Part shown: piece after piece, positions 10,117 to 28,330 of the stretch
How positions within the stretch are numbered: position 1 is the stretch's first letter
Layout: each line of letters opens with the position of its first letter
From: an uncultured Azospirillum sp.
GTDB taxonomy: Bacteria; Pseudomonadota; Alphaproteobacteria; CACIAM-22H2
DNA length: 64,000 bases
Assembly (NCBI GenBank): GCA_964416335.1
Contig: CAYQDN010000004.1
Span: 64,518-128,517 of the forward strand
Direction of reading: 5' to 3'
Program-made: the position numbers and the translations under genes
Notes under the pieces: generated by a model
What the model was told of the DNA's origin: nothing
Database searches by the model: none
The model's input: the letters and a program-made list of their open reading frames with translations, nothing else

Positions 10117-10191
10117 TGGTGCCGGGTGAGGGGATTGAACCCCCGACCTTCGGTTTACAAAACCGCTGCTCTACCGCTGAGCTAACCCGGC
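10117..10191 (-). tRNA. tRNA-Thr (anticodon TGT)
   Basis: Reverse complement reads GCCGGGTTAGCTCAGCGGTAGAGCAGCGGTTTTGTAAACCGAAGGTCGGGGGTTCAATCCCCTCACCCGGCACCA. It has a 7-bp acceptor stem, D and T arms (GGTTCAATCC), the anticodon loop TT-TGT-AA and an encoded CCA. 75 nt. Confidence 0.9.
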
Positions 10192-10193
10192 AT

Positions 10194-11474
10194 CTATTTG
10201 ATACGTCTAAGTTTCGCCTTAGTATCCGTTCGCGTCCGTTCTGCCAAGTGGGACTTCTCAGTGGGACTTTGGCCTTTGAAGAGCGGACTTGCCGGTAACC
10301 GAGAGGTCGAGCGCATCGCCGCAACTGCGGCGCGTTTTGCGCTATCGGCGACCTCTGTATAGAGGGCGGTCGTGGCTGCGCTTTTATGGCGGGCCAAGCT
10401 TTGAGTGGTCGCCGAGGATGCGACCAGTGCCACCTGGGTTATGTATGTCGCGCGAAGGTCATGAAACCGCCAGCGTCCACCCATCCCGAACCTCTTGAGC
10501 ACGGTTGACCAAGCGCGTCGCGCATTCTTGATGGGGCGGGGCGGGAAAGGCCTTCCGTCGGATTGGAGACCTGGTGCTGAATACACAATCAATGATTCGC
10601 AAGCTTGCTTGCGCTCAGCAGCGAACATTGCAAGCCACGAGAGCAATTCTAGAGCTTCGTCATTTGCATTGAGTATCTCGTCCCGATTGGCTTTCGTTAT
10701 GGCTGCCGGAAGTCGGAGAGCTTCGGCTTCCCAATCAATCCAATTCGTTTTTGCTTTGAAAACTTCCGACAGGCGAAGTCCGAACAGGCGAACAAGAGCG
10801 GCGGCTTGCCAAAGGTGATCAGGTGTTGCCGGATCTGATTCAATTCGCGCTAGGACAGCCAGCGGAACCGGATTTGGATCCCTCTTTGCCTCGGTAAGCT
10901 TCTCGATTTTTGGCATCCACGTGAGGCGAAGCTGGCCGTCTGGTCCTCGTGTATTGTGAGCAAGCCGAAGCGTTGCCGAGAGCTGATCCAAATATCGATT
11001 GGTACGTGCAGGGGATCGCGGCCGATTGAGTTCGATCATCAAATCGGAAAGCTCTTCTTTATTGCTTCTGTCCGCAGTCTTTGGTCCGCCACGCCACTTC
11101 TTGACGATTTGCCTGCGGCAAAAGGCGCGATATTCCATCCAGCGGTTCGCTACCGAATCAATTGGGGCGGCAGGGCCAAAAAATTCAAGAATCTCCGCCT
11201 GCATAGGCGCTATATCGCGCCAATTTCTTAGATGACGAGCTTCCTCCACTCGCGCTGCAACAGCCTGCGCCAGCGTATAAACCTCACGGGTCGACAGGGC
11301 AGCCTTGGTGTCCTTTCGTGCGATAACCCGCGCCGCTTCTTCACACGCCTTGGCCTGACGTCGAGAGATCGCAGGTGAGCCATCCGCATTCATGCATTGG
11401 CGCTTGAAGCGAATGCCATTTACCCAAAAATCAAAAGTCCAGGATCTGGTCTTTTTATCGACGTAAATTGACAT
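10194..11474 (-). CDS. int: tyrosine-type site-specific recombinase (phage integrase family)
   Basis: C-terminal catalytic region RFHDLRATYITQ...LYTE (the HxxR...Y motif). About 425 aa. Its stop lies 3 nt from the tRNA-Thr 5-prime end. Confidence 0.9.
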   Translation of the reverse strand: MSIYVDKKTRSWTFDFWVNGIRFKRQCMNADGSPAISRRQAKACEEAARVIARKDTKAALSTREVYTLAQAVAARVEEARHLRNWRDIAPMQAEILEFFGPAAPIDSVANRWMEYRAFCRRQIVKKWRGGPKTADRSNKEELSDLMIELNRPRSPARTNRYLDQLSATLRLAHNTRGPDGQLRLTWMPKIEKLTEAKRDPNPVPLAVLARIESDPATPDHLWQAAALVRLFGLRLSEVFKAKTNWIDWEAEALRLPAAITKANRDEILNANDEALELLSWLAMFAAERKQACESLIVYSAPGLQSDGRPFPPRPIKNARRAWSTVLKRFGMGGRWRFHDLRATYITQVALVASSATTQSLARHKSAATTALYTEVADSAKRAAVAAMRSTSRLPASPLFKGQSPTEKSHLAERTRTDTKAKLRRIK

Positions 11475-13742: not shown

Positions 13743-13907
13743 AATTAGTCGATGCGATTTTTTAGGTGAATCAATATATTCAAATAAAATCATATAGATA
13801 TGGTATCTTCAGGAGTTTTGAACGGATGATAAATTAGATAGGCAGGATTACGATAATGGCGTACAATTAATTCTACTCTACTCATTATCGGAAGGAATTT
13901 GGGTTCG

Positions 13908-14447
13908 ATGGCATCGGCAAACCCAGTCCGTGCGCCTTCGCCAGAGGAGCCTTCTGGCTCAATCGATCGGGTGTCGGGAAGTCAGACGATGCCGGAAAAG
14001 AGGAGACTTGGACGGCCACCTGGCTCGGGGGCGAGCTCGCCCAGGCTATCGGGTCGCCTGAACATTCGGCTGGCAGAGACCGAATGGGCTGTTATCCGTG
14101 CCGCAGCAGCTGAAGCCGGATGGTCGGTAAGTCGGTATGTGCGTACCGCGTTACTTGAGCGCGCCAGGGATACGAGAATTGGCGTCCTTGCCCGAGAGGA
14201 GCGCGAGCTGATGGCGGCGGGGCTATTCGAGCTACATCGCCAAGGCAGCAACCTCAATCAACTCGCCTTTGCGGCAAACAAGGCGCTGGCGCTCGGCCGG
14301 CTACAGGAGTTTCCAGACGGATCTGATCTCGAGGAGGCCGCAGCGGCGGCGAAAGCCGCCATCGGAAGAATAACGACGCTTCTTGAGTCTGCTGGTAGCC
14401 GACTTCATCGATCCTCCAAAGCAGGTTCCAATGTGGCGGAGCGATGA
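13908..14447 (+). CDS. mobC: MobC-family mobilization (relaxosome accessory, RHH) protein
   Basis: RLNIRLAETEWAVIRAAAAEAGWSVSRYVRTALLERA matches the ribbon-helix-helix core of MobC. ATG at 13908 is preceded by GAAGGAA. The ORF track starts at a TTG at 13899. Confidence 0.7.
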   Translation: MASANPVRAPSPEEPSGSIDRVSGSQTMPEKRRLGRPPGSGASSPRLSGRLNIRLAETEWAVIRAAAAEAGWSVSRYVRTALLERARDTRIGVLAREERELMAAGLFELHRQGSNLNQLAFAANKALALGRLQEFPDGSDLEEAAAAAKAAIGRITTLLESAGSRLHRSSKAGSNVAER

Positions 14448-16503
14448 CACCGATTTCTGGAAGCGGCTGCGTGCCGGTAAGCTCGATGAGCGCGATCATG
14501 ATGCGCTCGGATTTCTGCCCCTAGGCCATCGTGGCGAGAAAGCGTTTATCCGACTTGCGATCCGGGCGAGAGCGCGCCGAATACTGACGGATTGGGGGAC
14601 AAAGCCCCGCAAGCGAACCGGAGTCATGACAGGCCGTGGGCACGGGTCCGCTCCATTGCTACCGCTTCAACCGCCACCGGCCATCGTGGTTAAACAAGTA
14701 TCTGTCGCGCGGCCAAAAGAGGCACTGCGCCGAATTGCTCGCTACATCGGACGGCTCGATGTCGATTACGAAGACGGCAAAGCGGAATCTGCAGCTGAGC
14801 GCACTTTGACGGCGGCCGATCCAGCTGACTCTGCCAAGAAGAAAAGAAAGCCAGCAACTGCCTCACTCGATGCATCGAAAATTGAGCGGAGACCGCCAGC
14901 CATTTTCGACGCCAATGGAAACAAGATCGATCGCGACGAGATGCTCGCGCTTCTGGAAGACTGGGGCCTATTTGCAGACCGCGAGCATCTGACCCCAAAG
15001 GGACGAAGAGTGCTCACGAATGGGGGTGATGGAGCCCTGCGAAACCTCACCGAAGCTGAAGCGTTCTCAGCCGTCCAAGGGCGACACATCGTCATCTCCT
15101 TTCCGAAGAACGATCGGCTCTACAATTCAAAACTGGAAGAGATTGCGCGCCAGTTTCTGAAAGAGACATTTGGCGCTTGGGGGTACCCAGCCATTGCAGC
15201 GGTGCATGCAGAACACGGGCGCTTCCGTCATCTGCATATCCTGGTTGGGAACGTGAAGACATGCTCGCTCGCAATTGAAAATGTCGATCGCCGGCGCCTG
15301 CGCGACAAAAATATCGAGCGTTTCTTTTTTGACCTCGACGGATTCATGGCTGATGGCTTGCGTCTTGCGGCGGTTCAGGTCGCGGAGAAGTTCGGATTCC
15401 ATCTCGATGCCTCTCGCCGCGAAGATCGGCGTGATGTCGTAGACAGAATTCTCGCCGGAACTGAGCGGCTTCGCCCTCGTCCAATCAATGAAAAGTGGGA
15501 CGATCGATCTCTGGAGTTTTTCGCCGAGCGGGAGCTCGCACGGCAGAAGACTGAAGGTTCGATCAATCCATTGCGTGAAATGAATCCAACGCTTCGTCGC
15601 CTTGTGCAACGAGCACCGAGCTTTGTCATCAAGCATGTTGACACGCTCGTGGCCAATTTTCTGGCCGACCAGCGTCGACGCAATGCTTCGGAGCCTTATC
15701 CTGTTCCGGCAACCAAAGTGGAAATGGGAGGTGGCTTCATCCAGCGTATCTTCGGTGTTGCCGGTACACCCGAACGCCCTGTAACCCAGCCGGATGGTTC
15801 ACTTCAGCCTTTTGCCGATGCAATCCGAAAGCGGCAAATATTCGAAGATCAGGGCGGAGTTGATCGAACAAATGAGGCGATCGAGATGTGGGATGACTTG
15901 CGGCGCGAAGACGCGGCACTTGCAAACACAGCTCTCGTAACCTGGCCGGAGCTTTTTGGTCCAGTTACAGAGAGCGCAATTGGTCTACGAAAAGACTCGG
16001 AACTAGTAGACCTGACCAAGTCCGTCGCTTTGCCGACGAATTTCGCGCTGGATCCCGAGGCGGAAAAGCAAGATTCAAAATGTCAAAAGCATGCAAGCCC
16101 TGATGCCAGAACGGCATTGATGGTTCGTGCATTCAATGCACTTTCAACAAAGCTTGAAGAACTGTCAGATTTCGACACTGGAGACCGCACGGCGCGCATC
16201 GATCAATTGGCAATCTCCGACAGTTATCTGCAGTTGGCAAAGACCATCAATGCAGCTTTTCCAGACGATATTGATATGTTGCAGCAGGCGGTCGAGTTGA
16301 GAAGACTGTCGGCGATTGTCCGATCATTGGAGCGCGTGCCCACAAACGGCGATATGCCAAAACAGATCGAAGAATTCTTGATTTCTATCGAACCTGATAT
16401 GGCTCCAAAAAAGCCCGCTTCAATAGCGTCGCTCGAGCCAACTAAGAAAGACGGAGGTACCGAACTTCAGAAGAAACTTCGAGGGGGGCGGGAACTGGAT
16501 TGA
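14431..16503 (+). CDS. conjugative relaxase (MobA/VirD2-like, His-triad type)
   Basis: Motif III HAEHGRFRHLHILVGN (H-x-E-x5-H-x-H) with an upstream candidate catalytic Tyr (NDRLYNSK) and a long C-terminal region. The first ATG, at 14431, overlaps the mobC 3-prime end by 17 nt. The ORF track starts at a TTG at 14383. Confidence 0.75.
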   Translation: MWRSDDTDFWKRLRAGKLDERDHDALGFLPLGHRGEKAFIRLAIRARARRILTDWGTKPRKRTGVMTGRGHGSAPLLPLQPPPAIVVKQVSVARPKEALRRIARYIGRLDVDYEDGKAESAAERTLTAADPADSAKKKRKPATASLDASKIERRPPAIFDANGNKIDRDEMLALLEDWGLFADREHLTPKGRRVLTNGGDGALRNLTEAEAFSAVQGRHIVISFPKNDRLYNSKLEEIARQFLKETFGAWGYPAIAAVHAEHGRFRHLHILVGNVKTCSLAIENVDRRRLRDKNIERFFFDLDGFMADGLRLAAVQVAEKFGFHLDASRREDRRDVVDRILAGTERLRPRPINEKWDDRSLEFFAERELARQKTEGSINPLREMNPTLRRLVQRAPSFVIKHVDTLVANFLADQRRRNASEPYPVPATKVEMGGGFIQRIFGVAGTPERPVTQPDGSLQPFADAIRKRQIFEDQGGVDRTNEAIEMWDDLRREDAALANTALVTWPELFGPVTESAIGLRKDSELVDLTKSVALPTNFALDPEAEKQDSKCQKHASPDARTALMVRAFNALSTKLEELSDFDTGDRTARIDQLAISDSYLQLAKTINAAFPDDIDMLQQAVELRRLSAIVRSLERVPTNGDMPKQIEEFLISIEPDMAPKKPASIASLEPTKKDGGTELQKKLRGGRELD

Positions 16504-16677: not shown

Positions 16678-19600
16678 ATGTGTGCCGAACGAAGGAATCC
16701 AGAAGCTGATGCCAAGTTAATAAATCTGGAAGAGCTTATGGCGTCACTGAACCTTGCGCAAAAGAGCAAGGGCACTTTGCGAATTTCAGAGCTGTTGGAA
16801 TCCTGCGGCGAATTTTCCAGTTCTATTCGATTGCTTCACCCAATAAAGGCGATTGCGACGATTGGTGGCTTGCTGACCCATCCGGGCCTACAAGCAAATT
16901 GCCTTCGTCTAGAGGCGATGGCTCATTTGGCAGTATGTGAAGCACGCGGTAAGCAGAAGCCAAATGGAAAATTGATTACGAAGTTCTTTCATTCTTTGGA
17001 AAATTCTCTGGGAGTTCTTGAAGATCCAATCGAGGATCTTTTCGTTTCCCGTGTTTCCTCAGAAAGAGGGGATTATCGAATATTTGGTGGCATAGCTGAG
17101 GGGGCCGCCTTTCAGCTGCAGCGGTTCCTGGACATAGTGGAAATGATGCCGAGTGGCACCATTTATGATGAGCTGCGTGACGAGATCCATTCCTTACTTC
17201 TGTTGTCTGACGTAGTAGCTGATCGCGCCGATTTGCCGGCCAACATCGTTGGAGCTGCAATGCCGCAATCGCGTATGCCATTGAGCATTCTGAATGCATT
17301 ATCGTCACTTAGAAAAACCGTTACGTTCACGACCCAAGAGCTATCGAAGCTAGGTATACGCCGCAATCATTTGCGAGGGTTTTGCTTTCAACCCGATGAT
17401 AGATCGGCGCTTGAAAGTGAGGCCATTGGGCACAGCCAACTGGAAAGTAAGCCAATAATCTTGACGGAGAGTGGGGTCGTGCTTGCGCTCCCCACTGCTG
17501 TAAACGTCGCAGTTCGTCGACGTATCATCGAGCGCTGCCATCAGCTTGGTATCCAAGAAGGACTCTTTAAATCGTACCTTGGTTGCTACGAGCGGACTCT
17601 TCACAACATGCCGATCTTGGGCATACCGCGGCGAGCACCAGTGCGTTTTCGGGCAGTTGGCCCATGCTGGTTTGCGCAGTTCATGACAGAAATTGACGCT
17701 GGTCGATGGTTACATTTCATAGCGATTGCAGATGATTTCGTGGGCTACGATAAAAATGGTCTGGCAGGTGTGAATGCCGATCCAGAAACCGCCGGAGCTT
17801 GCATCAAAGCCGAAATAGATAAAGCAATTGGATCTCTACAAGGAAAGCCAGAGTTTCGAAACGGCATAACACTCGTTGTGGTTTGTGGCTGGGGGCGAAC
17901 TTTTGCGACATCTCAGCAACCTGTTCGCCCAAATTGGAATTGGGAACTAATCAGCGCCCATGACCTTGCGACTTTGAGCTACTTGAACGGATTTAATCCA
18001 TGCGAGCTTTGGCGAGTTATCCATGACGAGGAAGAGCTAACTCGGTTTGATCTACGCCTTCAGAATCCCAATGGCTTGCTCAATTTGATCGCATGGGAGC
18101 GGCAGTTGAGCGGGCACCTCATTCCACATGCCAAACTCTTAGAAGTCGGTTCGACAGATAAACGTCCGACGATCCTCCAGATTGAACAGAACGGATTGCT
18201 AAAGCTGCGGGCGGAGGTTGCTATTGCTCACGATTGTCGGCGGCTTGGCGATAACAAGGGTCGAAGGTTAAGGGTTAGTCGCTTTGGGCAGGGGCACTTC
18301 CAAGAGGATAGACGGAAGGCAATTTATGTAGCCGAAGACGAGATTCTGGACGGCAAGTTAATGGGCGCGGTTGCGACGCCTGGTCGTGTTTGGTGGGTTT
18401 CCGTAGACGGTAATAGTCCGAGGGAAATGCTGTTTCAGTACTGGGAGATGCTTCTCCATTGGATGCACGAGTCCTCATCTGTACTCGATCTGGAGCTATC
18501 AAGCTTACTAGCCGGACCAATCCATTGGTCCGTTTGCTTTAATGAACTGACGCCGGCAATAGAAACACAACCGGGGCCTATCGATTGGTCGCGTGCCAGT
18601 TCTCTGCTTCAAACACGGATTTTTCCAGAGGATGGATCTGTATTCTTGGATGTGGACCCTCGTTTCCAAGAATCATTCCATCACCCTGAAAATCGAGCAG
18701 AGCGACTGCTCGTTGAAGTATTGGTCGAGGCAACAGCTCGATTGGTTGGGGCGAAGTTATCCGCAGAGCGTTTGGCAGAATTGGTAGGTCGAATCGTTCC
18801 GAATGTGGAAGCTAGACATATCCATGCATTTGAACAGCGTGAATTTAGAGATTTTTTCCGAGACAAGATCCCATCCAAATATATTTCGATAGCGCAGCAA
18901 GACGCCGCGAGATTGAGCCTTAGTCTTGGGTGGCGTGCGCGGCCACGTGAGGCGCTGGATTCGATCGTAGGAAAGCCAGAATGCACGACATTTCTAAATG
19001 CAACCGTAGCACTCTTGGAAGAGGAGCTTTGCCGCAATCTGGCTCGGTATCCCTGTGAAGCCTTGGTAAAGCGTGTTGTGCTCAACTATGAGAGCGCCAA
19101 TCAAGATTCTCTCACGTGGACTCGCTCTTCAGCAGCTTTGCTCGCTCTCTGTCGCGACAAGAGTGATGCGCTAGAGGTGATCTCCGATCGTAGCGCGGAA
19201 AGGAATGCTGTACTTCAGACATCTCGAATCATCATTGAAGCTGCCACGTGCGAGTGCCCGACGGAAGGTGGCGAGGCGGTCGGCGATATCGATGTCTCTC
19301 GGCTCATGGCAATCGTTTCGTGCATTGTGCATCTTGGCGGTTGGTCAGATGCTATTAGATGGGACGCGCTTGAGCCGCATTTAAAAATATCACCTTTTGG
19401 AGAAATTCTGAAATCGGCGCACTTCGAGGATGCCATTCTTGAGCCGTTCGGGCGCGCCAGTAGTGCGCGATTTGTGCGCGATGCAGTGTCGCGTTATCCC
19501 AAGCACTATGAAGAGATCAACGCCATTTCAAAGGTGGAGGCATCCTTCGATCAAGCGTTCGTAGTGGCCTTTCAGGCCGAGCTGGGAGTTTCTTTAGATG

Positions 19601-20478
19601 ACTGTAGAGGCATCATTGACGCATTCGAGAACGAAGCGATAAGTCGTGGAGAGCCAATTCTTTTCGCCTCACGCGCGGAGATGCTTGGATATGCGTACGA
19701 TGGGCGCGTGACGCGGGGGGCAATTGAGAAGTTCGCGAATGCCTTTTCGATGCAGCCTCGCTTGTCGTGGAGAGTGCCGCCCAAGGGCTATAAGCCGCGT
19801 GATCGCGAGCCTTGGCGGTATAGACGAAGATTGTCCACGTTGAGACTGCCGATATTGCAGCTAGATAGTTCCGAGAATCCAAAGATTCTTGTCGCACCAG
19901 GAATGTTGAGAGAATCATTCAACTATCTTTTGGGGGGCTATTACTTCGGCAATTTTGACAAGGCCTTTGTCTCTTCAGACGAAATGCGGAAGTGGATCGG
20001 AGCCGCCGCTAATCGGCGAGGCCACAAGTTTAATGAAAAAGTGGCAGCTCGAATGCGTGAGCTTGGATGGGAAGCGCAAGCCGATGTTCGGGTTGCCCAC
20101 CTTCTTCGCAAAGGGCTCCCGCGCGATTATGGTGATGTCGATGTTGTCGCCTGGAATCGAAGTTCGGGAAGAGTTTTGATTATGGAGTGCAAAGACCTCC
20201 AGTTCCGTAAAACACACGGTGAAATCGCCGAACAGATCTCCGACTTCCGCGGCGAGTTAGATGAAGATGGACGGCCGGATCTATTAAAAAAGCATTTGGA
20301 TCGTCTCGACATCGTTACGGCCCATCTGATGGAGGTGGTTCAGTTTTGTAAACTTTCAAAAGAGCCAGTTGTTGAAGGTCATGTCGTATTTAGGAATCCT
20401 GTTCCGATGCAGTTTGCTTGGAAGCGCCTAGCGCATTTGATTCGTCTGTCTATCTTTGACGCTTTAGAATCATTGTAG
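16678..20478 (+). CDS. large (1266 aa) hypothetical protein with C-terminal NERD/PD-(D/E)xK nuclease-like domain
   Basis: Long unbroken ORF in a roughly 50% GC region with unbiased composition. No Walker A motif was found. The C-terminus YGDVDVVAWNRSSGRVLIMECKDLQFRKTHGE fits a D-x-D...E-x-K restriction-endonuclease-like or NERD motif. A hairpin terminator follows. Confidence 0.7.
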   Translation: MCAERRNPEADAKLINLEELMASLNLAQKSKGTLRISELLESCGEFSSSIRLLHPIKAIATIGGLLTHPGLQANCLRLEAMAHLAVCEARGKQKPNGKLITKFFHSLENSLGVLEDPIEDLFVSRVSSERGDYRIFGGIAEGAAFQLQRFLDIVEMMPSGTIYDELRDEIHSLLLLSDVVADRADLPANIVGAAMPQSRMPLSILNALSSLRKTVTFTTQELSKLGIRRNHLRGFCFQPDDRSALESEAIGHSQLESKPIILTESGVVLALPTAVNVAVRRRIIERCHQLGIQEGLFKSYLGCYERTLHNMPILGIPRRAPVRFRAVGPCWFAQFMTEIDAGRWLHFIAIADDFVGYDKNGLAGVNADPETAGACIKAEIDKAIGSLQGKPEFRNGITLVVVCGWGRTFATSQQPVRPNWNWELISAHDLATLSYLNGFNPCELWRVIHDEEELTRFDLRLQNPNGLLNLIAWERQLSGHLIPHAKLLEVGSTDKRPTILQIEQNGLLKLRAEVAIAHDCRRLGDNKGRRLRVSRFGQGHFQEDRRKAIYVAEDEILDGKLMGAVATPGRVWWVSVDGNSPREMLFQYWEMLLHWMHESSSVLDLELSSLLAGPIHWSVCFNELTPAIETQPGPIDWSRASSLLQTRIFPEDGSVFLDVDPRFQESFHHPENRAERLLVEVLVEATARLVGAKLSAERLAELVGRIVPNVEARHIHAFEQREFRDFFRDKIPSKYISIAQQDAARLSLSLGWRARPREALDSIVGKPECTTFLNATVALLEEELCRNLARYPCEALVKRVVLNYESANQDSLTWTRSSAALLALCRDKSDALEVISDRSAERNAVLQTSRIIIEAATCECPTEGGEAVGDIDVSRLMAIVSCIVHLGGWSDAIRWDALEPHLKISPFGEILKSAHFEDAILEPFGRASSARFVRDAVSRYPKHYEEINAISKVEASFDQAFVVAFQAELGVSLDDCRGIIDAFENEAISRGEPILFASRAEMLGYAYDGRVTRGAIEKFANAFSMQPRLSWRVPPKGYKPRDREPWRYRRRLSTLRLPILQLDSSENPKILVAPGMLRESFNYLLGGYYFGNFDKAFVSSDEMRKWIGAAANRRGHKFNEKVAARMRELGWEAQADVRVAHLLRKGLPRDYGDVDVVAWNRSSGRVLIMECKDLQFRKTHGEIAEQISDFRGELDEDGRPDLLKKHLDRLDIVTAHLMEVVQFCKLSKEPVVEGHVVFRNPVPMQFAWKRLAHLIRLSIFDALESL

Positions 20479-20603: not shown

Positions 20604-21101
20604 CTAAATAGCAGAAGCCCCATCTCGGTTCGCGGCCGAGGTGGGGCTTTTTTGCATGGTTGTTTGTCGTTCCTTAGTCTCCCAGTTTTTAAATATCGAA
20701 TGATCGATCCAAGTACCCAATCGGCCCCACAGCGGTGGCCTATCATGTCGCTCGTCGATCCATTCCGTCGTATCGATGCAGTCGACCCTCGCCCAAACGG
20801 CGATCTCGCAAAGCATGTTTAGCCATCCGAGCGGCCGTGCTTCGTTTGCTGCCTTGCAGGACTGGAGTGCGCGGTTTGGGATCGCCCATAGCACTTCCCA
20901 GTAGATGTCGAGATCCGGCGGTAGAGTGGCAAAGGCCAGGGACCGGGCCTGCACTTCAGTCAGCGATTTCACGTTCGTGAAGTATGGCCGCGGGAGCGCG
21001 AACAGCAGCCGGATCCGCTCGGCGAAGCGCTCGAACTCCGGAAGGGCTGCCGTCTGTTCGTGGATATCAACGATCGTGGCTGTGCCGACCTGATGCATCA
21101 T
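20604..21101 (-). CDS. hypothetical protein (last gene of the NERD operon)
   Basis: 165-aa ORF whose start overlaps the upstream stop (ATGA). Its 3-prime end overlaps the terminator hairpin, so the true C-terminus may be shorter. Confidence 0.45.
   Translation of the reverse strand: MMHQVGTATIVDIHEQTAALPEFERFAERIRLLFALPRPYFTNVKSLTEVQARSLAFATLPPDLDIYWEVLWAIPNRALQSCKAANEARPLGWLNMLCEIAVWARVDCIDTTEWIDERHDRPPLWGRLGTWIDHSIFKNWETKERQTTMQKSPTSAANRDGASAI
20617..20653 (+). terminator. rho-independent terminator for the 1266-aa gene
   Basis: GCCCCATCTCGG-ttcgcgg-CCGAGGTGGGGC forms a 12-bp stem with one G-U wobble, followed by TTTTTT. It lies between convergent genes. Confidence 0.65.
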
Positions 21102-21436
21102 GAAGGGTACATCCCCTTTATCAACGTTTCCCGGATCTTTCGTAACTCTTCGTCGATGTCGATATTAGATTGGATCGAGCGCCGACGCTCGAATGCGGGG
21201 AATTCGAGCTCATCATCCTGCGTCGCTCGGACTGAAAGAATGAAATGCCCTTCGGCGATGCAGCGAAGGAGATAGTCGCGAACCGATATGCCCATCCGAT
21301 CGGCTACGGCTTTGGCGCGTTGGTAGGCGGCTCCGGATTCCAGGAACTTCAGCTCGATCGTTGGTGGCGCAGAGGGCGCCGCGCCGTCTTGCGATATGAC
21401 GGCCGGGCTCGGCGGAGTAGGGCGTGGGCCACTCAA
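21098..21436 (-). CDS. small ribbon-helix-helix (CopG-like) domain protein
   Basis: AYQRAKAVADRMGISVRDYLLRCIAEGHF resembles an RHH DNA-binding module. Both ends overlap neighbouring genes by 4 nt (ATGA), implying translational coupling. Confidence 0.45.
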   Translation of the reverse strand: MSGPRPTPPSPAVISQDGAAPSAPPTIELKFLESGAAYQRAKAVADRMGISVRDYLLRCIAEGHFILSVRATQDDELEFPAFERRRSIQSNIDIDEELRKIRETLIKGMYPS

Positions 21437-22707
21437 TAGCGCCAGACCCCACGATCGCCCTCCCGGCAGGCGACCACGTTGTAGGTCTTCCCCGAATAGG
21501 ACATCTCCGCGAACTGGCAGCCAGGGCGTCCGGTAACTGGCCCGAGCGCCCGGACCCAGTCCTTGTCGCCGGCGGCGATACGTTTCTCGGGCTCACTTGT
21601 CGCCTTGGTCAGGGCGGCCTGGATCGGGTCGGGTGTTGGTGCCGCCCGTGCTGGTGTTCTCGCGACGATTTGACTAGCCGGTGGTGGCGTTGGCGCCAGT
21701 ATCTGGCTGGGGCGGCCTGCCCAGATTGAGAAGGCGATGAGAATTGCCAGCCCGATGCCAAGCTTGTTGATCCAGCGACTTGGCTTCCGGATCGGTTCAG
21801 GGGGCTTGGGGCTTATCTTGGTCAAGAAAGTTCGCACGTCCTCGGACTTCAGGTGCGGACCTTCATGACGACGCTGTTCTTCGACCGGTGGTGCCTTCGA
21901 AAAACTCAAGGGCTTCGGTGACGGGTTGATGATCGCTTCGATCTCTTGTCGAACGAGATCAGGACCTGGTCGAACGTCGAGCTCGCTCGTCATCCAGCTG
22001 ATCAGCCGGGTGGTATCGTCCCCCGAGAGCAGATAACCGATACCCGGTCGTGACAGCTCATCGGCGACCAGTGCCCACATACCGAATTCGGCCAGATCCT
22101 CCGCGAAGACGATCCGCATGAAGTCACGGTCGGGGGCATAGAGGCGGCTCAGGATCGATGGACCGATCTGCGTCCGGGATGTATGGGGAAACACCATCAG
22201 CTGGCCGATCCGGGGGCCCAGATCGATGCCGGTCATTGCTCGGGCGGTAAGCGAGAAAGTATCAGTCAACCGGAACAGCTGCGCCGGCCTTACGTGGCCG
22301 CCTGTCGGTTGGCCACTCCGTGTGAAATGAGCCCAACGTACGCTTGGGCCGGGGCGGCCGTTGACCTCGACGAGGCCGCCCTTGACCTCGATCAAAGCTA
22401 CCCCGTGGGGGGTAACGGCGACGAAGTCCGCCTCGAGGCGGTGATTGCCGTCGAAGGGCAGGGGTAGCGAATAGGCTGCGTATCCGATGAACTGGGGTGT
22501 GTCCCACAGGAAGGATTCGTAAACGAGCCGCTCGCCGTCGTGTTGCGGTTCGGCGAGGACGACCGGGGCCGGCCATGGCGTGACCCGTACCTGTTCGGGG
22601 CGACCAGATGGGAGTGCCTCAACCGACGTCCCCTCTCGTCCAGTTTGGTTGACGAGATTCCAATAGACTCCGCGGGCCTGCCAAGCGGCCAATTCGTTGT
22701 TGTCCAT
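21433..22707 (-). CDS. NERD (nuclease-related domain) protein with one transmembrane helix and Pro-rich linker
   Basis: NERD core HRLEADFVAVTPHGVALIEVKGG (D/E...E-x-K). A hydrophobic helix WINKLGIGLAILIAFSIWAG is followed by a Pro-rich segment and a C-terminal domain. Confidence 0.7.
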   Translation of the reverse strand: MDNNELAAWQARGVYWNLVNQTGREGTSVEALPSGRPEQVRVTPWPAPVVLAEPQHDGERLVYESFLWDTPQFIGYAAYSLPLPFDGNHRLEADFVAVTPHGVALIEVKGGLVEVNGRPGPSVRWAHFTRSGQPTGGHVRPAQLFRLTDTFSLTARAMTGIDLGPRIGQLMVFPHTSRTQIGPSILSRLYAPDRDFMRIVFAEDLAEFGMWALVADELSRPGIGYLLSGDDTTRLISWMTSELDVRPGPDLVRQEIEAIINPSPKPLSFSKAPPVEEQRRHEGPHLKSEDVRTFLTKISPKPPEPIRKPSRWINKLGIGLAILIAFSIWAGRPSQILAPTPPPASQIVARTPARAAPTPDPIQAALTKATSEPEKRIAAGDKDWVRALGPVTGRPGCQFAEMSYSGKTYNVVACREGDRGVWRY

Positions 22708-22724
22708 GCGGCCTCGAGACTACG

Positions 22725-22756
22725 TATGAAGTATGCTTTATTAAGTATACTTCATA
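22725..22756. promoter_or_regulatory. palindromic operator in divergent NERD/XRE promoter region
   Basis: TATGAAGTAT-N12-ATACTTCATA: perfect 10-bp inverted arms in the 82-bp gap between the NERD gene start (22707) and the XRE gene start (22790). Confidence 0.6.
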
Positions 22757-22789
22757 GAGTCGAAGCTGCCAACGGGATTTCCTCGCGGT

Positions 22790-23020
22790 ATGAAAGCGCG
22801 GGAAATCCTTGCTCGGAATGTGCGGCGGTTGCGTGCGGAGCGCGGGATGTCACAGGAGAAGCTTGGGTTCGAGGCTGAAATTTCGATGACCTATGTAAGT
22901 CACATCGAAACTGAAAAATATGCGGCCACAATTGATGTGATTGGGAAGGTCGCGAAGGCTCTGAAAGTGACGTTGAGCGAGCTGTTATCCGAGCCGCCAA
23001 AGCAGCGCCGCTCTAAATAA
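22790..23020 (+). CDS. XRE-family (Cro/CI-type) HTH transcriptional regulator
   Basis: ILARNVRRLRAERGMSQEKLGFEAEISMTYVSHIETEKYAATIDVIGKVAKALKVTLSELL is a canonical HTH_3 domain. 76 aa. Confidence 0.85.
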   Translation: MKAREILARNVRRLRAERGMSQEKLGFEAEISMTYVSHIETEKYAATIDVIGKVAKALKVTLSELLSEPPKQRRSK

Positions 23021-23575
23021 ACATACGGTGTCATTTTGCGCGGACAACTGGCACATCCGATCAGCGCGTCGTGTAGGCCGGCGTAAGGTTCGCAAACCGC
23101 GTCTGCCAACTCGGGCGAATACCCTCGCCGGCGACTTTTAGCGATCCGCGTCCCATGCGCCCGTTCAGGGCGTCGACAGCAGCCATGAGCTTGATCCGTC
23201 GCGGATCGCCATTGGTCTCGAACAGAGAACGCTGTCCCGTTCCGGCGGACGCCAGGCCATCCGCAACGACGCCTGCCTTCGAGTATCAGAAGCAGTCCCG
23301 CCAAATCTGCTTTGCCGCTTTGACCGAAGCCGATACCAGCTCGAACGCGTCGGCCGACGGCTCGAGCAGCCGCGCACTGGTCGAATTCGCATAAGATGGA
23401 TCGCCATTGAGATTGCCTACAAATGTCTAGCTGTTTTGCCAAAGATCATTGACCTGTTTTCATCGCAGCGAAAAGTAAGAATATGATTTTAAATGATTAT
23501 TCGCCCATTCGAGCATATGAAACATATCAGGAACAAATTTCTTCAAGATAATCGAGAAACATCCTATGATAGGCC

Positions 23576-24907
23576 ATGTCAAAAGTTGTCACCGACAATC
23601 AGGTATTGGGGGAGCTGGGCGAGACAGCGATCAAAAAAATCGTGCTCGAAACTGGTTTCATCTATGAGCATCGCGGGCGACTGGAAGCAGGTACAGACGG
23701 TCTAGTCGAGCTACGTGATCCGCGCAGTGGCGCGCCACTTGGCAAAATGCTTGCTGTGCAAGTTAAATCCACAGATGTCGGGAAGTATATTCGTGAAGAT
23801 GAGCGCGGATTCGAATACCTACTCAAGCCAGATGATCTGAAATATTGGCGTACGTCAAACATCCCAGTCGTGATTGTCCTCTGGCGTAAGTTCGACCAGA
23901 CAGCTTATTGGAAAGAAGTCACTGATTGTGTAGGAGGCGAAGAGCGCCGCCTGAAATTCGACAAGCGCGCAGATGTTTTTGATGGTTCATGCGGGGATCG
24001 GCTCGGTGAGCTGACCATCGACCGTCGCACGCCTGGCGTATTCCTTCCGCCGCTGAATCACGGGGAAGGCGCGATTATCAATCTGTTGCGGGTGAAGTTG
24101 CCAGAGGAAATATTCATTGCAACATCACCATTCGGCAGCGGTCGGGATGCCGTTCCCGAGCTAGTCAAGCATGCAAATATCCGCTTCGATTGGGTCATCC
24201 GTAAGCGCCGTTATGTTTCCTTCTTCGATCCCCGAGAATATGGCACCTCTTCGATTGTCGATCTCGATCAAGTCGAGGCTGTCGATGCGAGGCAAATCAC
24301 GATGAACGATGAAACAGATGATTTGAATGATACTATTGATTTGCTGCGCCGCACGATCGAGCGACAAGTAGGAGCACAGCTTTCCTATCTGCGCAAAGAT
24401 CGACTCTTTCACTTCAAGGCTACCGATGTTCGCAAGGGCCGTAGCTATCGCTACATGGCGAACGTCAATGAGACCTCTGCCAAGGTGGTAAGCGTCTATT
24501 CAAGCAAAAAGAAGGAAGGGCGTGGCTACGTCCGACATCACGCGGCTCGATTGCGCTTCGAGCGACTATCTGACGAATGGTTTCTTGTTATTGATCCAGA
24601 CTATTACTTTACGTTTGATGGATTTCAGCCGCACCGCTATCCAGAAGCATTGCTCGCTGGCAAGAAGCGCCTTGAGCGTAATGCCGCTGTGCGCGGCCAG
24701 GTCATAATGTGGCAGCACCTACTGGTTAACAGCGGAAAGAACGAAGTTGGCCTGTTTGATGCGGGCAAACCAGCGCCGTTTCTTCAGTTCGAACGACTTC
24801 CGGTTCTCCAGCTCTCCCAGGCCGTTCCGGAAGATTCATGGAGCCGGACCGACCCCCGCGCTAAAGATATGGAAGCTTTCGACCTCTTCGAGGAAGGAGG
24901 TCTGTAA
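23576..24907 (+). CDS. DUF4365/DREN-type PD-(D/E)xK nuclease domain fused to APAZ-like region (short-pAgo partner, SPARDA-type)
   Basis: N-terminus GELGETAIKKIVLETGFIYEHRGRLEAGTDGLVELRD...MLAVQVKST gives a D...E...QxK nuclease motif characteristic of DUF4365 (Mrr-like). The roughly 300-aa remainder, of unknown fold, sits where APAZ does. Its stop overlaps the pAgo start (TAATG). Confidence 0.7.
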   Translation: MSKVVTDNQVLGELGETAIKKIVLETGFIYEHRGRLEAGTDGLVELRDPRSGAPLGKMLAVQVKSTDVGKYIREDERGFEYLLKPDDLKYWRTSNIPVVIVLWRKFDQTAYWKEVTDCVGGEERRLKFDKRADVFDGSCGDRLGELTIDRRTPGVFLPPLNHGEGAIINLLRVKLPEEIFIATSPFGSGRDAVPELVKHANIRFDWVIRKRRYVSFFDPREYGTSSIVDLDQVEAVDARQITMNDETDDLNDTIDLLRRTIERQVGAQLSYLRKDRLFHFKATDVRKGRSYRYMANVNETSAKVVSVYSSKKKEGRGYVRHHAARLRFERLSDEWFLVIDPDYYFTFDGFQPHRYPEALLAGKKRLERNAAVRGQVIMWQHLLVNSGKNEVGLFDAGKPAPFLQFERLPVLQLSQAVPEDSWSRTDPRAKDMEAFDLFEEGGL

Positions 24908-26361
24908 TGAGTTTCAAAGCACAAGTTTTTGATGAACCGATGCTGGAATTTGGCGATGGTGGTCAACATTGCGATCCCCGGCAAGGCTTGCGCGAATATG
25001 GGCCATTGCAGCCAGGTTCGGGCGATATCGTGCGCGTGGGCGTGATCGGAACGGACGAAACTGTCGCGGGTTTTGCAGAATTTTTGGAGGAGACCGGACG
25101 AGGCATCGAGAGCGGCAACAAGCAACTCATAAATCTGAACCCGGATTTTCCCGGATTGGGAAATCAAAATCCGTTCCGCTGCAAGTTCGAGGTTCCGGAG
25201 GGAGCAACCGCAACTATTTCGCGACGACAGGTTAACGAAATCAGAGAAATCAAACGGCATGACGACGCTGTCAATTACGCAGTCGAACTGATCACAGCGC
25301 AACTTTCCGCTCTGGTCGAGAGTAGCGCCAAGCCCGATGTTATCGTGCTCGCTTTGCCGGTGCCGCTGATCGAAAAGCTGGTAAATGCCAAAAGTGAGGA
25401 AGAGGCAGAAGCCGCCGAAGAAAACGAAGATCGCGGAGGGATGTTAAACTTCCGTGACCTGTTGAAAGCCAAGACTCTTCATCTACCGGTACCGAGCCAA
25501 ATCGTATGGCCAGATACATGGGATGACGCCGCAAAAATTCCTCGCAAAGTGAAGCGGGACAGCAATCGCCAAACGCAAGTCAAAGCGACTCGTGCATGGA
25601 ATCTATTGAACGCGCTGTTCTACAAAACGGGTAAGGTGCCATGGCGCTTGCTTCCAGATCGGGCTGAATATCGTACAAGCTTTCTTGGTATTGGGTTCTA
25701 TCGCGATATTGACGGTCAGCAGCTTTGGACTAGCACGGCACAGATGTTTGATGAGCGAGGTCGTGGGCTCATCCTGAGGGGCGCCCGTGCGCAGACAGAA
25801 ACTCGCGGTCGCCATCCGTATCTGACGGCGCACGACGCAGAAGATTTAGTTTCGCAATCCATTGCGGCGTACAAGTCGCATCATCGCCATGTCCCGGCAC
25901 GCTTGATTGTCCTAAAAACATCACGGTTTCGACCCGAGGAAGCAGAGGGCATAGATGCCGCCCTCAAGAGATTCAATGTCGAGATGTGCGATCTTGTTTG
26001 GGTGCAAGAAAGTTCACCGATCGCGATCTTCCGTGACGGCAACTATCCAGTTTTACGAGGAACGTTTGTCGATCTGGGAGGCAAGGGCTTACTTTACACC
26101 CGCGGTAGCGTGCCATTCTATGGAACGTATCCAGGACTACGAATTCCCCGCCCGTTAATGCTCGTGCCGCACCAGAATTCGGATAGTAATCTGCTCACAT
26201 TGGCGAAGCACGTGTTGGCGCTGACCAAGGTCAATTGGAACTCCACGCAATTTGACCAGAAACTTCCTGCACCAATCAAAGCGGCTCGAGAAGTCGGTCG
26301 CATCCTAAAACATGTGAAATTTGGCACGGCAGTCTCGCCGGATTTCCGCCGATATATGTGA
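24907..26361 (+). CDS. short prokaryotic Argonaute (MID-PIWI only, catalytically inactive type)
   Basis: MID-like PDVIVLALPVPLIEKL. Argonaute-typical LLNALFYKTGKVPWRL followed by FLGIGFYRD, which occupies the position of the first RNase-H strand. A RIIFYRDG-like LIVLKTSRFRPEE follows. No DEDX catalytic tetrad is evident. 484 aa. Confidence 0.7.
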   Translation: MSFKAQVFDEPMLEFGDGGQHCDPRQGLREYGPLQPGSGDIVRVGVIGTDETVAGFAEFLEETGRGIESGNKQLINLNPDFPGLGNQNPFRCKFEVPEGATATISRRQVNEIREIKRHDDAVNYAVELITAQLSALVESSAKPDVIVLALPVPLIEKLVNAKSEEEAEAAEENEDRGGMLNFRDLLKAKTLHLPVPSQIVWPDTWDDAAKIPRKVKRDSNRQTQVKATRAWNLLNALFYKTGKVPWRLLPDRAEYRTSFLGIGFYRDIDGQQLWTSTAQMFDERGRGLILRGARAQTETRGRHPYLTAHDAEDLVSQSIAAYKSHHRHVPARLIVLKTSRFRPEEAEGIDAALKRFNVEMCDLVWVQESSPIAIFRDGNYPVLRGTFVDLGGKGLLYTRGSVPFYGTYPGLRIPRPLMLVPHQNSDSNLLTLAKHVLALTKVNWNSTQFDQKLPAPIKAAREVGRILKHVKFGTAVSPDFRRYM

Positions 26362-26905: not shown

Positions 26906-28330
26906 ATGGTCGATACCTACCAAGGCAGCCTTTTCTCTGGCGACTTTCTGACTGACTCCATTACTCGGCTGCCCGATTGGGCGGAGGTGTCCGACAGCGA
27001 AATCGCCAGCCTCTCCGGCAAGCTTACTGAAATTATCGCTAAGTTTCCAACCAGGCAGTCGCCCAACGAAGCGCAAACTGAAGATGATCTCATCTGGAAA
27101 GTGCTCGGTGCACTCGGCTGGACGGATTTCCTCCGTCAGCAGAATCTTGCGCCGAAAGGTCGCGAGGACGTGCCGGATGGTCTGTTGTTCAGGAATGACG
27201 CCGCCAAGGCCCAGGCCAACAAGACCCCAGATGAATGGAGACGCTACGAATTCGGGCTTGCCGTTGTGGAATCTAAGCGTTGGAATCGTCCTCTTGATCG
27301 CCGATCAGGAACGCGCGGTGAAGAAACCGCGCCATCGACGCAGATGCTGCGCTATTTGCGCCGCGTCGAGGATCTAACGACTGGCAAATTAAGATGGGGC
27401 ATTCTTACCAATGGCGGACGTTGGAGGCTCTACTATCAAGGAGCCCGCTCGGTCGCCGAACACTTCTTCGAAATCGACCTTGCGCAGATTCTAGGAATTG
27501 AGGGGCACGAGGGCGGCTTGTTCTCACTCAAAGTGAGCCAACGCGCCCATGCGCTTCGCGTTTTTTATCTGATATTTCGGAAGGCCGCCTTTATCGGCAC
27601 CGCAAGCGATCCGCGGACTTTCCATCAACGCGCGCTCGATGAAGGCCGCTTCTATGAAGAAAGAGTTGCCGCCAATCTTTCTGATCTCGTGTTCGGCGAA
27701 GTCTTCCCAAAGTTGGTGCACGCCATAGCAAACGCTGCGCCCAGCGCGCCGTTGCAAAGTGTGCGCGAGGCCGCCCTGATTCTTCTCTACCGCCTCCTAT
27801 TCATTCTGTATGCAGAAGATCGCAACTTACTTCCTGTGCGTGATCCTCGTTACGACGATTATGGATTGCGTGATAAAGTGCGTGGAAATGTCGGAGATCG
27901 CAAAACCAAGAACGACGTGTTCTCCGATACGGCGGCCCGCTATTGGTCAACGATTGACGATTTGTGTCGAGCCATCGATAAAGGTGACAGCTCGATTGGG
28001 CTTCCTCCTTACAATGGCGGGCTGTTCGACCGGGAGCGTACACCTCTGCTGACAGAGGTGCGGATACCCGATGCGGTCATGGCCGACGTCATCGACGCCT
28101 TGTCCTTTGAGCAAACGCCGGCAGGACGACGCTATATCAACTATCGTGATTTGAGCGTGCAACAGCTCGGCTCGATATACGAGCGCCTGCTTGAGCATGA
28201 AGTTGACCTGACCGGGTTTTCTTGGACCAGGCTGATTGAGATAATCAGTTTGGAAAGGAGCCCCGGTCAGGTCACGTGTAAAGCGCTGACAGAAGTCTCC
28301 CTCCGTAGTCCGGCCGGTGGACGATCGTGA
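26906..28330 (+). pseudogene. truncated type IIL/IIG (MmeI-like) restriction-modification enzyme, N-terminal nuclease plus helical part only
   Basis: N-terminal PD-ExK (PDGLLF...GLAVVESKRW) and the conserved LLYRLLFILYAEDRNLLP motif of MmeI/Eco57I-like enzymes. It stops after 474 aa without any methyltransferase motifs, and a frame-shifted 68-aa ORF follows (28317-28523). The gene ends at the island GC boundary. Confidence 0.65.

Follow-up and report, generated by a model that had tools for sequence, protein, structure and literature searches.

The analysed stretch of DNA (hereafter the window) comprises 64,000 nucleotides from an uncultured Azospirillum sp. (contig CAYQDN010000004.1, positions 64,518–128,517) and contains, at positions 20604–23020, a cassette of four genes, here called N, B, C and X. 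N (21433–22707, minus strand) encodes 424 residues and is predicted to be a membrane-anchored nuclease of the NERD type with a PD-(D/E)xK active site. B (21098–21436, minus strand, 112 residues) is like ribbon–helix–helix (RHH) proteins by pattern only, and C (20604–21101, minus strand, 165 residues) is predicted to be all-helical, with a fold that has no match. X (22790–23020, plus strand) encodes a 76-residue helix–turn–helix (HTH) regulator of the XRE/Cro-C1 type and is divergent from the N operon, the start codons of X and N being separated by 82 bp. The four open reading frames (ORFs) and the 82 bp gap had been given in a first-pass annotation of the same DNA and were recovered from both the ORF list and the raw sequence. 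The annotation also described the minus-strand genes as chained by ATGA overlaps. This is correct for the B/C junction, which is a genuine ATGA overlap, but the N/B junction is TTGA, with the TTG start codon of B overlapping the stop codon of N. This TTG is the sole in-frame start codon upstream of the conserved core of B.

Relatives of N were sought in several collections. A word-indexed search among 5.8 billion proteins returned 19 members of the family, an exhaustive profile search among 1.84 billion returned 21 representatives, and a scan of 185,579 species-representative genomes returned only two contigs, both from Tagaea sp. metagenome-assembled genomes. No relatives of N were found on 72,556 PLSDB plasmids, in the INPHARED phages or in IMG/VR. 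The comparison reported here covers 12 independent lineages (the window, L001, L002, L004/L005, L006, L008, L010, L012, L014, L015, L016/L018 and L019); two further cassette loci are known from gene tables only. X and N occur together in all 12 lineages with unrelated flanks, and a divergent XRE gene of 76–79 residues lies upstream of N in every one, including L008 and L010, where it was missed or shortened by the gene caller yet is present. C was found in nine lineages (the window, L001, L002, L004, L006, L008, L010, L012 and L015) and B in five (the window, L001, L002, L008 and L010). Four lineages have C without B (L004/L005, L006, L012 and L015), and L018 and L019 have neither (tblastn at E ≤ 10). 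Conservation of the gene order across genomes, which the first-pass annotation had named as a check, therefore extends to X and N, and the fixed three-gene N/B/C operon that it described was not upheld. The conserved unit is X plus N, with B and C as lineage-specific accessories. The joint presence of X and N among unrelated flanks argues that the cassette is autonomous, and it is horizontally mobile. Since B and C are absent from some lineages, N cannot rely on either for neutralization everywhere, and the patchy distribution weakens the picture of an obligate toxin held in check by small partners. Ratios of nonsynonymous to synonymous substitution rates (dN/dS) between the window and L008 are 0.22 for N, 0.10 for B and 0.25 for C, which indicates that all three are real genes under purifying selection.

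The NERD-like nuclease domain of N covers residues ∼56–248 (21964–22542, minus strand) and carries the motif DFV…IEVKGG. Pfam detects only NERD in N, and neither GIY-YIG nor DUF4041. The window protein scored 21.5 bits against the Pfam NERD model (PF08378; E = 3.4e-4), just below the gathering score of 22.1. The gathering score was exceeded by the relatives P0045 (28.7 bits), P0046 (26.5 bits), P0047 (26.8 bits) and P0049 (28.0 bits), as well as by P0053 and P0054, so that the six passing relatives span 26–29 bits; P0011, P0016 and P0018 carry precomputed PF08378 matches. The NERD domain named in the first-pass annotation is thus secured only because relatives pass the threshold that the window protein alone narrowly misses. 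Asp94, Glu107 and Lys109 are invariant in all 19 aligned N sequences and, as judged from this alignment, constitute the PD-(D/E)xK signature of NERD; the D…(D/E)xK motif is also visible in distant relatives. Other invariant positions in the alignment include Gln143, His175, Arg194, Glu203, Asp216 and Glu217. An AlphaFold2 (AF2) model of N is confident over residues 56–248, with predicted local distance difference test (pLDDT) values of ∼70–90. Its best Foldseek matches in the PDB (McrC at the top, with AF1548, Bax1, Can2, Cdn1 and Hjc) are without exception PD-(D/E)xK nucleases but fall short of significance (E ≥ 0.05). A PDB profile search with N gave no match. NCBIfam also paired N with the MAD6 kinase (E = 0.008; 14.8 bits, cut-off 460 bits), a match that was rejected because it reflects a shared NERD strand only.

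Hydropathy analysis of N gave a single transmembrane (TM) segment, with a Kyte–Doolittle 19-residue maximum of 1.67. The TM helix, INKLGIGLAILIAFSIWAG, was assigned to residues 313–331 (21715–21771, minus strand), and the AF2 model has a helix at residues 312–330. It is followed by a proline-rich linker (residues 332–357), and both features agree with the first-pass annotation. Absent from that annotation is a conserved C-terminal domain of ∼65 residues beyond the TM helix (residues ∼358–424; 21436–21636, minus strand) with two invariant cysteines, Cys397 and Cys414. In the AF2 model residues 358–424 are compact, with one helix and four strands (pLDDT ∼80–89). In each of the 19 proteins inspected, close as well as distant, the domain after the TM helix contains two cysteines and no more, and when the C-terminal domains of both clades were aligned these were the only invariant columns. 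Of eight close family members examined, seven lack any cysteine ahead of the TM helix. Four Lys/Arg residues occur in the 15 residues before the TM helix and one after it, a bias that indicates that the N-terminus is inside. The simplest reading of the topology is that the nuclease domain would be cytoplasmic and the proline-rich stalk and small C-terminal domain periplasmic; the latter is probably disulfide-bonded. Neither Pfam nor the PDB gave a sequence match for the C-terminal domain, apart from a chance match (E = 0.4) in a PDB profile search. A likeness to the 17 kDa surface-antigen domain family was considered and dropped, as Pfam gave no support for it at E ≤ 10. In the distant NERD–TM relatives P0059 and P0062 a longer C-terminal domain replaces the small two-cysteine one. 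In sequence this longer domain may resemble staphylococcal-nuclease-like domains.

X consists of a bare HTH domain and a short basic tail. It matches Pfam HTH_3 (E = 2.9e-13), and its best PADLOC match is the restriction–modification (R-M) model Control_protein (PDLC03665; E = 1.7e-15, residues 3–67 of 76), followed by capH (E = 9e-13); an HTH-bearing type II restriction endonuclease model is also matched. Within the cassette X alone matches PADLOC models, and these are generic HTH regulators.

A σ70 promoter of the N operon is predicted at 22744–22772 on the minus strand, with the −35 element TTGGCA at 22772–22767 and the −10 element TATACT at 22749–22744. It has ten of 12 consensus matches and a 17 nt spacer and was the sole strong site in the gap in a promoter scan; the transcription start is predicted near 22737. 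The sequence CGTTGGC, which includes the −35 TTGGC, and the 17 nt spacing are invariant in eight aligned intergenic regions and four further lineages. Beside the X gene lie two tandem quasi-palindromic boxes that are conserved across the 12 lineages. Box 1 (22740–22755) reads ATTAAGTATACTTCAT on the plus strand and ATGAAGTATACTTAAT on the strand of N, and it covers the −10 element of the N promoter. Its family consensus, ATTAAGTATACTTAAT, is a perfect 16 bp palindrome; perfect copies are present in seven lineages (L001, L004, L006, L010, L012, L015 and L018) and copies with one mismatch in L014 and L019. The predicted +1 region of the N transcript is covered by box 2 (22726–22741; ATGAAGTATGCTTTAT on the plus strand), a weaker quasi-palindrome that lies 14 bp downstream of box 1 in the window; in most relatives the distance is 16 bp. 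Of its two halves, the right one is a good half-site kept in the eight aligned intergenic regions (ACTTAAT or GCTTAAT; ACTTCAT in the window), and the left one is degenerate. As the −10 region is symmetric (AGTATACT), TATACT also occurs on the strand of X at 22746–22751, with no acceptable −35 element alongside.

The first-pass annotation had proposed an ideal palindromic operator, TATGAAGTAT-N12-ATACTTCATA, at 22725–22756. The palindrome is present there and is formed by the outer half-sites of boxes 1 and 2. A 10-N12-10 palindrome of this kind occurs once in the window and in none of 100 dinucleotide-preserving shuffles; the repeat finder extended it to 14 nt arms with 93% complementarity and also read it as a direct repeat of 14 bp period. 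It is not the conserved element, which is the pair of tandem 16 bp boxes. Relative to L010, the X of which is 96% identical, the outer half of box 1 in the window has a T-to-G change, the outer half of box 2 has the matching A-to-C change and the spacing is 2 bp shorter. These differences give rise to the 10-N12-10 form, which is found in this window only.

In L002 and L008, in which X is 59 and 45% identical to that of the window, respectively, the recognition helix reads IDRSYVSLLE and VDRGYIGHLE in place of ISMTYVSHIE. In both lineages the AGTATAYT core is kept and the flanks have changed in both boxes. The flanks therefore vary together with the recognition helix of X, which is the pattern expected if X reads the boxes. 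We infer, fairly securely, that X binds the tandem boxes and so occludes the −10 and +1 positions of the N promoter. The box motif was found at no other site in the 64 kb window; control by X of the SPARDA genes downstream (see below) was considered and rejected on this ground.

A conserved stem–loop at 22774–22808 (plus strand) involves the leader and first codons of the X mRNA, with the AUG (22790–22792) in the loop. In an RNAalifold analysis of the 12 lineages 93.8% of cells were paired, compared with 32–62% when the partners were slid. The covariation score of 0.327 was reached by one of 500 shuffles, and compensatory changes occur in three pairs. The 3′ arm encodes KAREIL, so its conservation is partly driven by the protein; the untranslated 5′ arm tracks the 3′ arm, also in L002 and L008, where the peptide is different. 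Judged from these patterns, the hairpin probably throttles translation of the repressor, or at least may do so.

B has a variable N-terminal segment of ∼27 residues, rich in proline and alanine, followed by a conserved core of ∼85 residues that opens with MIELKF in many homologues. The core follows the pattern strand, helix, G-x-S turn, second helix, and ends in a conserved PAFERR…ELRKLR tail. Sub-threshold Pfam matches were obtained to NikA-like proteins in nine of 18 members and to ParD in six of 18 (best E = 0.03). In hhalign comparisons B aligned in register with the NikA-like protein of the window itself, weakly (E = 0.07), and with a small, hand-assembled RHH alignment (P = 0.0013, probability 19%). 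The RHH-like character noted in the first-pass annotation is thus visible in the strand–helix–helix pattern and is not statistically established; an RHH fold is plausible for B, the matches being consistent with it but weak. The only PDB profile matches of B, to designed repeat proteins, were discarded as an artefact of summed sub-threshold repeats.

The conservation of C is confined to about 20735–21101; DNA homology to L008 stops at 20735, and the last ∼25–40 residues are a window-specific tail that runs into a GC hairpin and T-run. AF2 modelling from seven sequences gave five helices in residues 7–106 (pLDDT ∼70–90). Two subfamilies of C, the window protein and the third gene of other lineages, are homologous (hhalign 96.9%, E = 1.3e-10). 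No match to C was found in Pfam, PADLOC, PHROG, NCBIfam, the PDB (Foldseek) or BFVD, and neither B nor C has a significant family match in Pfam, PADLOC, NCBIfam or PHROGs. In the clade without B, N and C are separated by a conserved spacer of ∼200 bp with a possible 72-residue ORF unrelated to B (L004 7292–7507, L006 7298–7513, L015 5223–5438 and L012 7319–7528). The ORF has 82–86% amino-acid identity among three lineages and 67% in L012, and the spacer might supply a second gene in place of B, or else act as a conserved RNA or regulatory element.

A low-GC island (47–60% GC) occupies ∼10–29 kb of the window, within DNA of 65–70% GC, and includes the cassette. The GC content of the cassette is ∼60% and that of its neighbours ∼50–52%, a difference that suggests mosaic assembly of the island. 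In order, the island comprises a tRNA-Thr(TGT) gene (10117–10191) and an adjoining tyrosine integrase gene (10194–11474), followed by genes for a NikA-like protein and a MobA/VirD2-type relaxase (13899–16503), a full-length Upx gene (16678–20478, plus strand; PADLOC E = 1.7e-250), the cassette and a SPARDA-type pair. The latter consists of a DUF4365-APAZ gene (23576–24907, plus strand; PADLOC E = 5e-159) and a short prokaryotic Argonaute (pAgo) gene (24907–26361, plus strand; E = 7.5e-169). Marked by the tRNA-Thr gene, the integrase, the NikA-like protein and the relaxase, the island is an integrative mobilizable element, and the cassette is its cargo, placed between two recognized defence systems (Upx and SPARDA). 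No repeat of at least 14 nt of the tRNA-Thr region was found elsewhere in the window as a second attachment (att) site that would define the far end of the island.

Several further features border the cassette. Within the nonconserved 3′ tail of C, at 20618–20650 (plus strand), a GC-rich hairpin, GCCCCATCTCGG-TTCGCGG-CCGAGGTGGGGC, is followed by TTTTTT. This structure has the appearance of a terminator for the convergent Upx gene, although a terminator scan made no call for it. The C tail runs into it, and the Upx module therefore directly adjoins the cassette, the true end of which is near 20735. On the other side, 23020–23410 shares ∼76% identity with the 3′ terminus of the umuC-like gene (IMS/DUF4113) beside the XRE gene in L010. 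This segment is apparently what is left of a truncated umuC, situated between the cassette and the SPARDA genes, which suggests that SPARDA was inserted into an older cassette–umuDC arrangement. Downstream of SPARDA, a 474-residue ORF (26906–28330, plus strand) without a Pfam match resembles PADLOC models of DrmMI and of type IIG restriction endonuclease–methyltransferases over the N-terminal ∼400 of their 1250–1350 residues (E ∼ 1e-26). The ORF may be a truncated or stand-alone methyltransferase-like gene.

Defence genes also accompany the cassette in other lineages. In L004 a PDC-S06 gene adjoins X (E = 1.7e-181) and a SPARTA pair lies ∼2 kb beyond C (TIR-APAZ, E = 5.7e-138; pAgo, E = 2.2e-196). 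PDC-S06 (E = 1.3e-125), umuDC and a relaxase gene are near the cassette in L010, a HerA-like ATPase and transposases in L012, and a CapH/CapP pair in L019, and the P0012 locus has a CBASS operon with CapH/CapP-type regulators and a PIN protein. The likeness to a defence module suggested by the first-pass annotation thus extends to the company that the cassette keeps, both here and in several lineages. Short-pAgo systems are neighbours twice (SPARDA in the window and SPARTA in L004), in differing orientations. A MobA_MobL or VirD2-type relaxase gene lies ∼1–4 kb from the cassette in L002, L006, L010, L018, the P0017 locus and the window.

The closest functional parallel to N that we considered is SNIPE, a membrane-bound GIY-YIG nuclease that cleaves phage (lambda) DNA during injection (Saxton et al., Nature 2026, PMC13190303). 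The tether prevents self-cleavage, SNIPE without its TM segment being toxic, and can provide discrimination between self and non-self by position (PMC13190303). SNIPE and N both combine a single-pass inner-membrane anchor with a cytoplasmic nuclease, which for N is predicted only, and both SNIPE and the cassette occur among defence genes. The folds are unrelated, GIY-YIG plus DUF4041 in SNIPE and NERD/PD-(D/E)xK without DUF4041 in N. The order is also reversed, as in N the nuclease is N-terminal, followed by the TM helix near residue 313 and the conserved periplasmic domain. Furthermore, SNIPE is a single gene, whereas the cassette includes a repressor of its own and as many as two accessory genes. 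With the NERD family (PF08378), to which NERD–helicase proteins also belong, N shares the D…ExK motif and hidden Markov model similarity. Grynberg and Godzik reportedly noted in 2004 that some NERD proteins have predicted TM helices. The N subfamily differs from other NERD proteins in being tiny and in its fixed NERD–TM–Pro–2Cys architecture. That a NERD domain can serve as a defence effector is known from ZwsA (bioRxiv 10.64898/2026.04.06.716636), the architecture of which is different: it is a soluble VHS–DUF647–NERD–S4 protein that cleaves RNA (bioRxiv 10.64898/2026.04.06.716636). Like X, which matches the capH model, the HTH repressor CapH is located divergently upstream of a defence-like operon. 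X differs in being a bare HTH domain with a short basic tail, and no CapP-like protease is encoded beside it.

Our tentative reading, which we rate as slightly short of probable, is that the locus is a repressor-gated, membrane-tethered nuclease cassette for defence or exclusion, carried as cargo of mobile elements. Gene content, conservation, motifs and genomic context were observed directly. In the mechanism that we envisage, dimers of X would bind the two tandem 16 bp boxes, box 1 over the −10 element and box 2 over the +1 position of the N promoter, and would thereby shut off N, B and C. Because the −10 region is palindromic, X would probably also silence its own gene; autoregulation of X is plausible, as far as can be inferred from the sequence. 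The hairpin around its start codon would probably limit translation of X, and a naive cell that receives the cassette would express the operon until X has built up. N would be a single-pass inner-membrane protein with its predicted, catalytically intact PD-(D/E)xK domain facing the cytoplasm. The tether would keep N off the nucleoid and position it where foreign DNA crosses the membrane, and the periplasmic domain would be a docking or sensing module for the entry apparatus. N would thus follow the same spatial logic as SNIPE with unrelated parts and act as a defence or exclusion nuclease carried by integrative mobilizable elements. DNA binding by X, the topology, the nuclease activity and the defence role all enter this mechanism as predictions, and on that footing the cassette is a credible candidate for a new bacterial immune module.

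A more specific form of this reading we consider doubtful, namely that the cassette is an undescribed immune or exclusion system in which the periplasmic domain of a tethered PD-(D/E)xK nuclease would sense the place where DNA enters or dock there. The same doubt attaches to its remaining parts: that foreign DNA would be cut as it crosses the membrane, that this would be an independent invention of a SNIPE-like strategy, and that a controller-type repressor would provide the gate and two accessory proteins the tuning.

Several observations weigh against the defence or exclusion reading. X lacks both a sensor domain and a partner protease, and the model gives no route for lifting repression. 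It also assigns no role to B or C. The promoter scan predicted no σ70 promoter for X on the plus strand, so autoregulation of X remains conjectural. The Foldseek matches of N are weak (E ≥ 0.05). N, B and C have no match in PADLOC-DB v2.0.0 at E ≤ 0.1 and no PHROG or NCBIfam defence model, which also bears out the statement of the first-pass annotation that the combination matches no named system. In the close lineage L001 the cassette is surrounded by metabolic genes. Finally, a distant relative with the same NERD–TM–2Cys plan (P0047; L020 4001–5134) has housekeeping neighbours (dioxygenase, LysE, TetR and GlnD genes), and XRE, B, C, mobile-element and defence genes are all absent from its surroundings. 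This context implies that the architecture alone does not indicate defence and that it is older than the mobile, XRE-gated version, and it hints at an ancestral nonmobile role.

Other explanations were weighed against the same features. The cassette could be an addiction (toxin–antitoxin-like) module that stabilizes the mobilizable element, with N or C as a toxin that is neutralized by B and/or silenced by X and that would be released on loss of the element. We regard this as unlikely. It would suit the position of the cassette on integrative mobilizable elements beside relaxases and integrases, as well as the likeness of B to the RHH antitoxins of type II systems (ParD/ParE, CopG-type), which comprises the strand–helix–helix pattern with its G-x-S turn, the weak ParD and NikA matches and a C-terminal tail like the toxin-binding tails of antitoxins. 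B and C are also tightly coupled through the ATGA overlap, in the window and in L008, and XRE proteins act as antitoxins in several type II families. C, however, matches no toxin family, and the occurrence of C without B in four lineages and of N without both in two means that no obligate pairing is conserved. In addition, X is divergent from N and not co-transcribed with it, and a plain toxin needs neither a TM anchor nor a strongly conserved periplasmic domain. Less likely again is an element-borne function in DNA processing or entry exclusion that is tied to conjugative mobilization and benefits the element without being antiviral. The relaxase genes close to the cassette in the six loci listed above, the weak matches of B to NikA-like relaxosome RHH proteins in half of its 18 members and the absence of N relatives from the phage and viral collections would all accord with such a function. 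The absence of relatives from the 72,556 PLSDB plasmids would not, and no relaxase was found near the cassette in L001, L004 or L012. In the window Upx sits between the cassette and the relaxase, and cargo hot-spots beside relaxases explain the proximity equally well.

Least probable of the explanations considered, and in our view improbable, is a controller-gated solitary restriction enzyme, modification-dependent or type IV-like, with X timing the expression of N after entry into a new host. The best PADLOC match of X is to an R-M controller, and the HTH-bearing endonuclease model points the same way. Controller (C) proteins of R-M systems are, like X, XRE-type HTH proteins of ∼76 residues, and their operators likewise consist of two adjacent palindromic boxes of unequal symmetry beside the regulator gene. 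The tandem boxes are similar to the OL/OR C-boxes of C.AhdI, C.PvuII and C.Esp1396I. N is moreover a predicted PD-(D/E)xK enzyme with McrC as its top fold match. Unlike R-M controller genes, X is divergent from the nuclease gene in all lineages and is not co-transcribed upstream of it. No methyltransferase is encoded in the cassette in any lineage, nor in or beside it in the loci examined. Both boxes lie over the core promoter, covering −10 and +1, so that only repression is predicted, and there is no distal activating site of the kind that C-protein circuits typically have. A membrane anchor such as that of N is also unlike known restriction enzymes. Each of the three alternatives thus fails at least one tested feature.

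If the cassette does serve defence or exclusion, cleavage of DNA at the site of entry would have arisen in evolution on two or more occasions, with unrelated nucleases, and the periplasmic domain would offer a tractable way to study how events beyond the membrane are linked to a nuclease in the cytoplasm. If it is only an addiction or housekeeping set, it would be a minor addition to the NERD family. The compact regulatory region, with two boxes over a symmetric −10 element and a hairpin over the X start, is available in 12 natural variants with repressor–operator covariation and would make a clean system for studying how mobile elements silence a dangerous enzyme. The cassette is built from known kinds of parts and is rare, well conserved and unannotated; it would gain substantially in importance if cleavage at the entry site or sensing in the periplasm were demonstrated.

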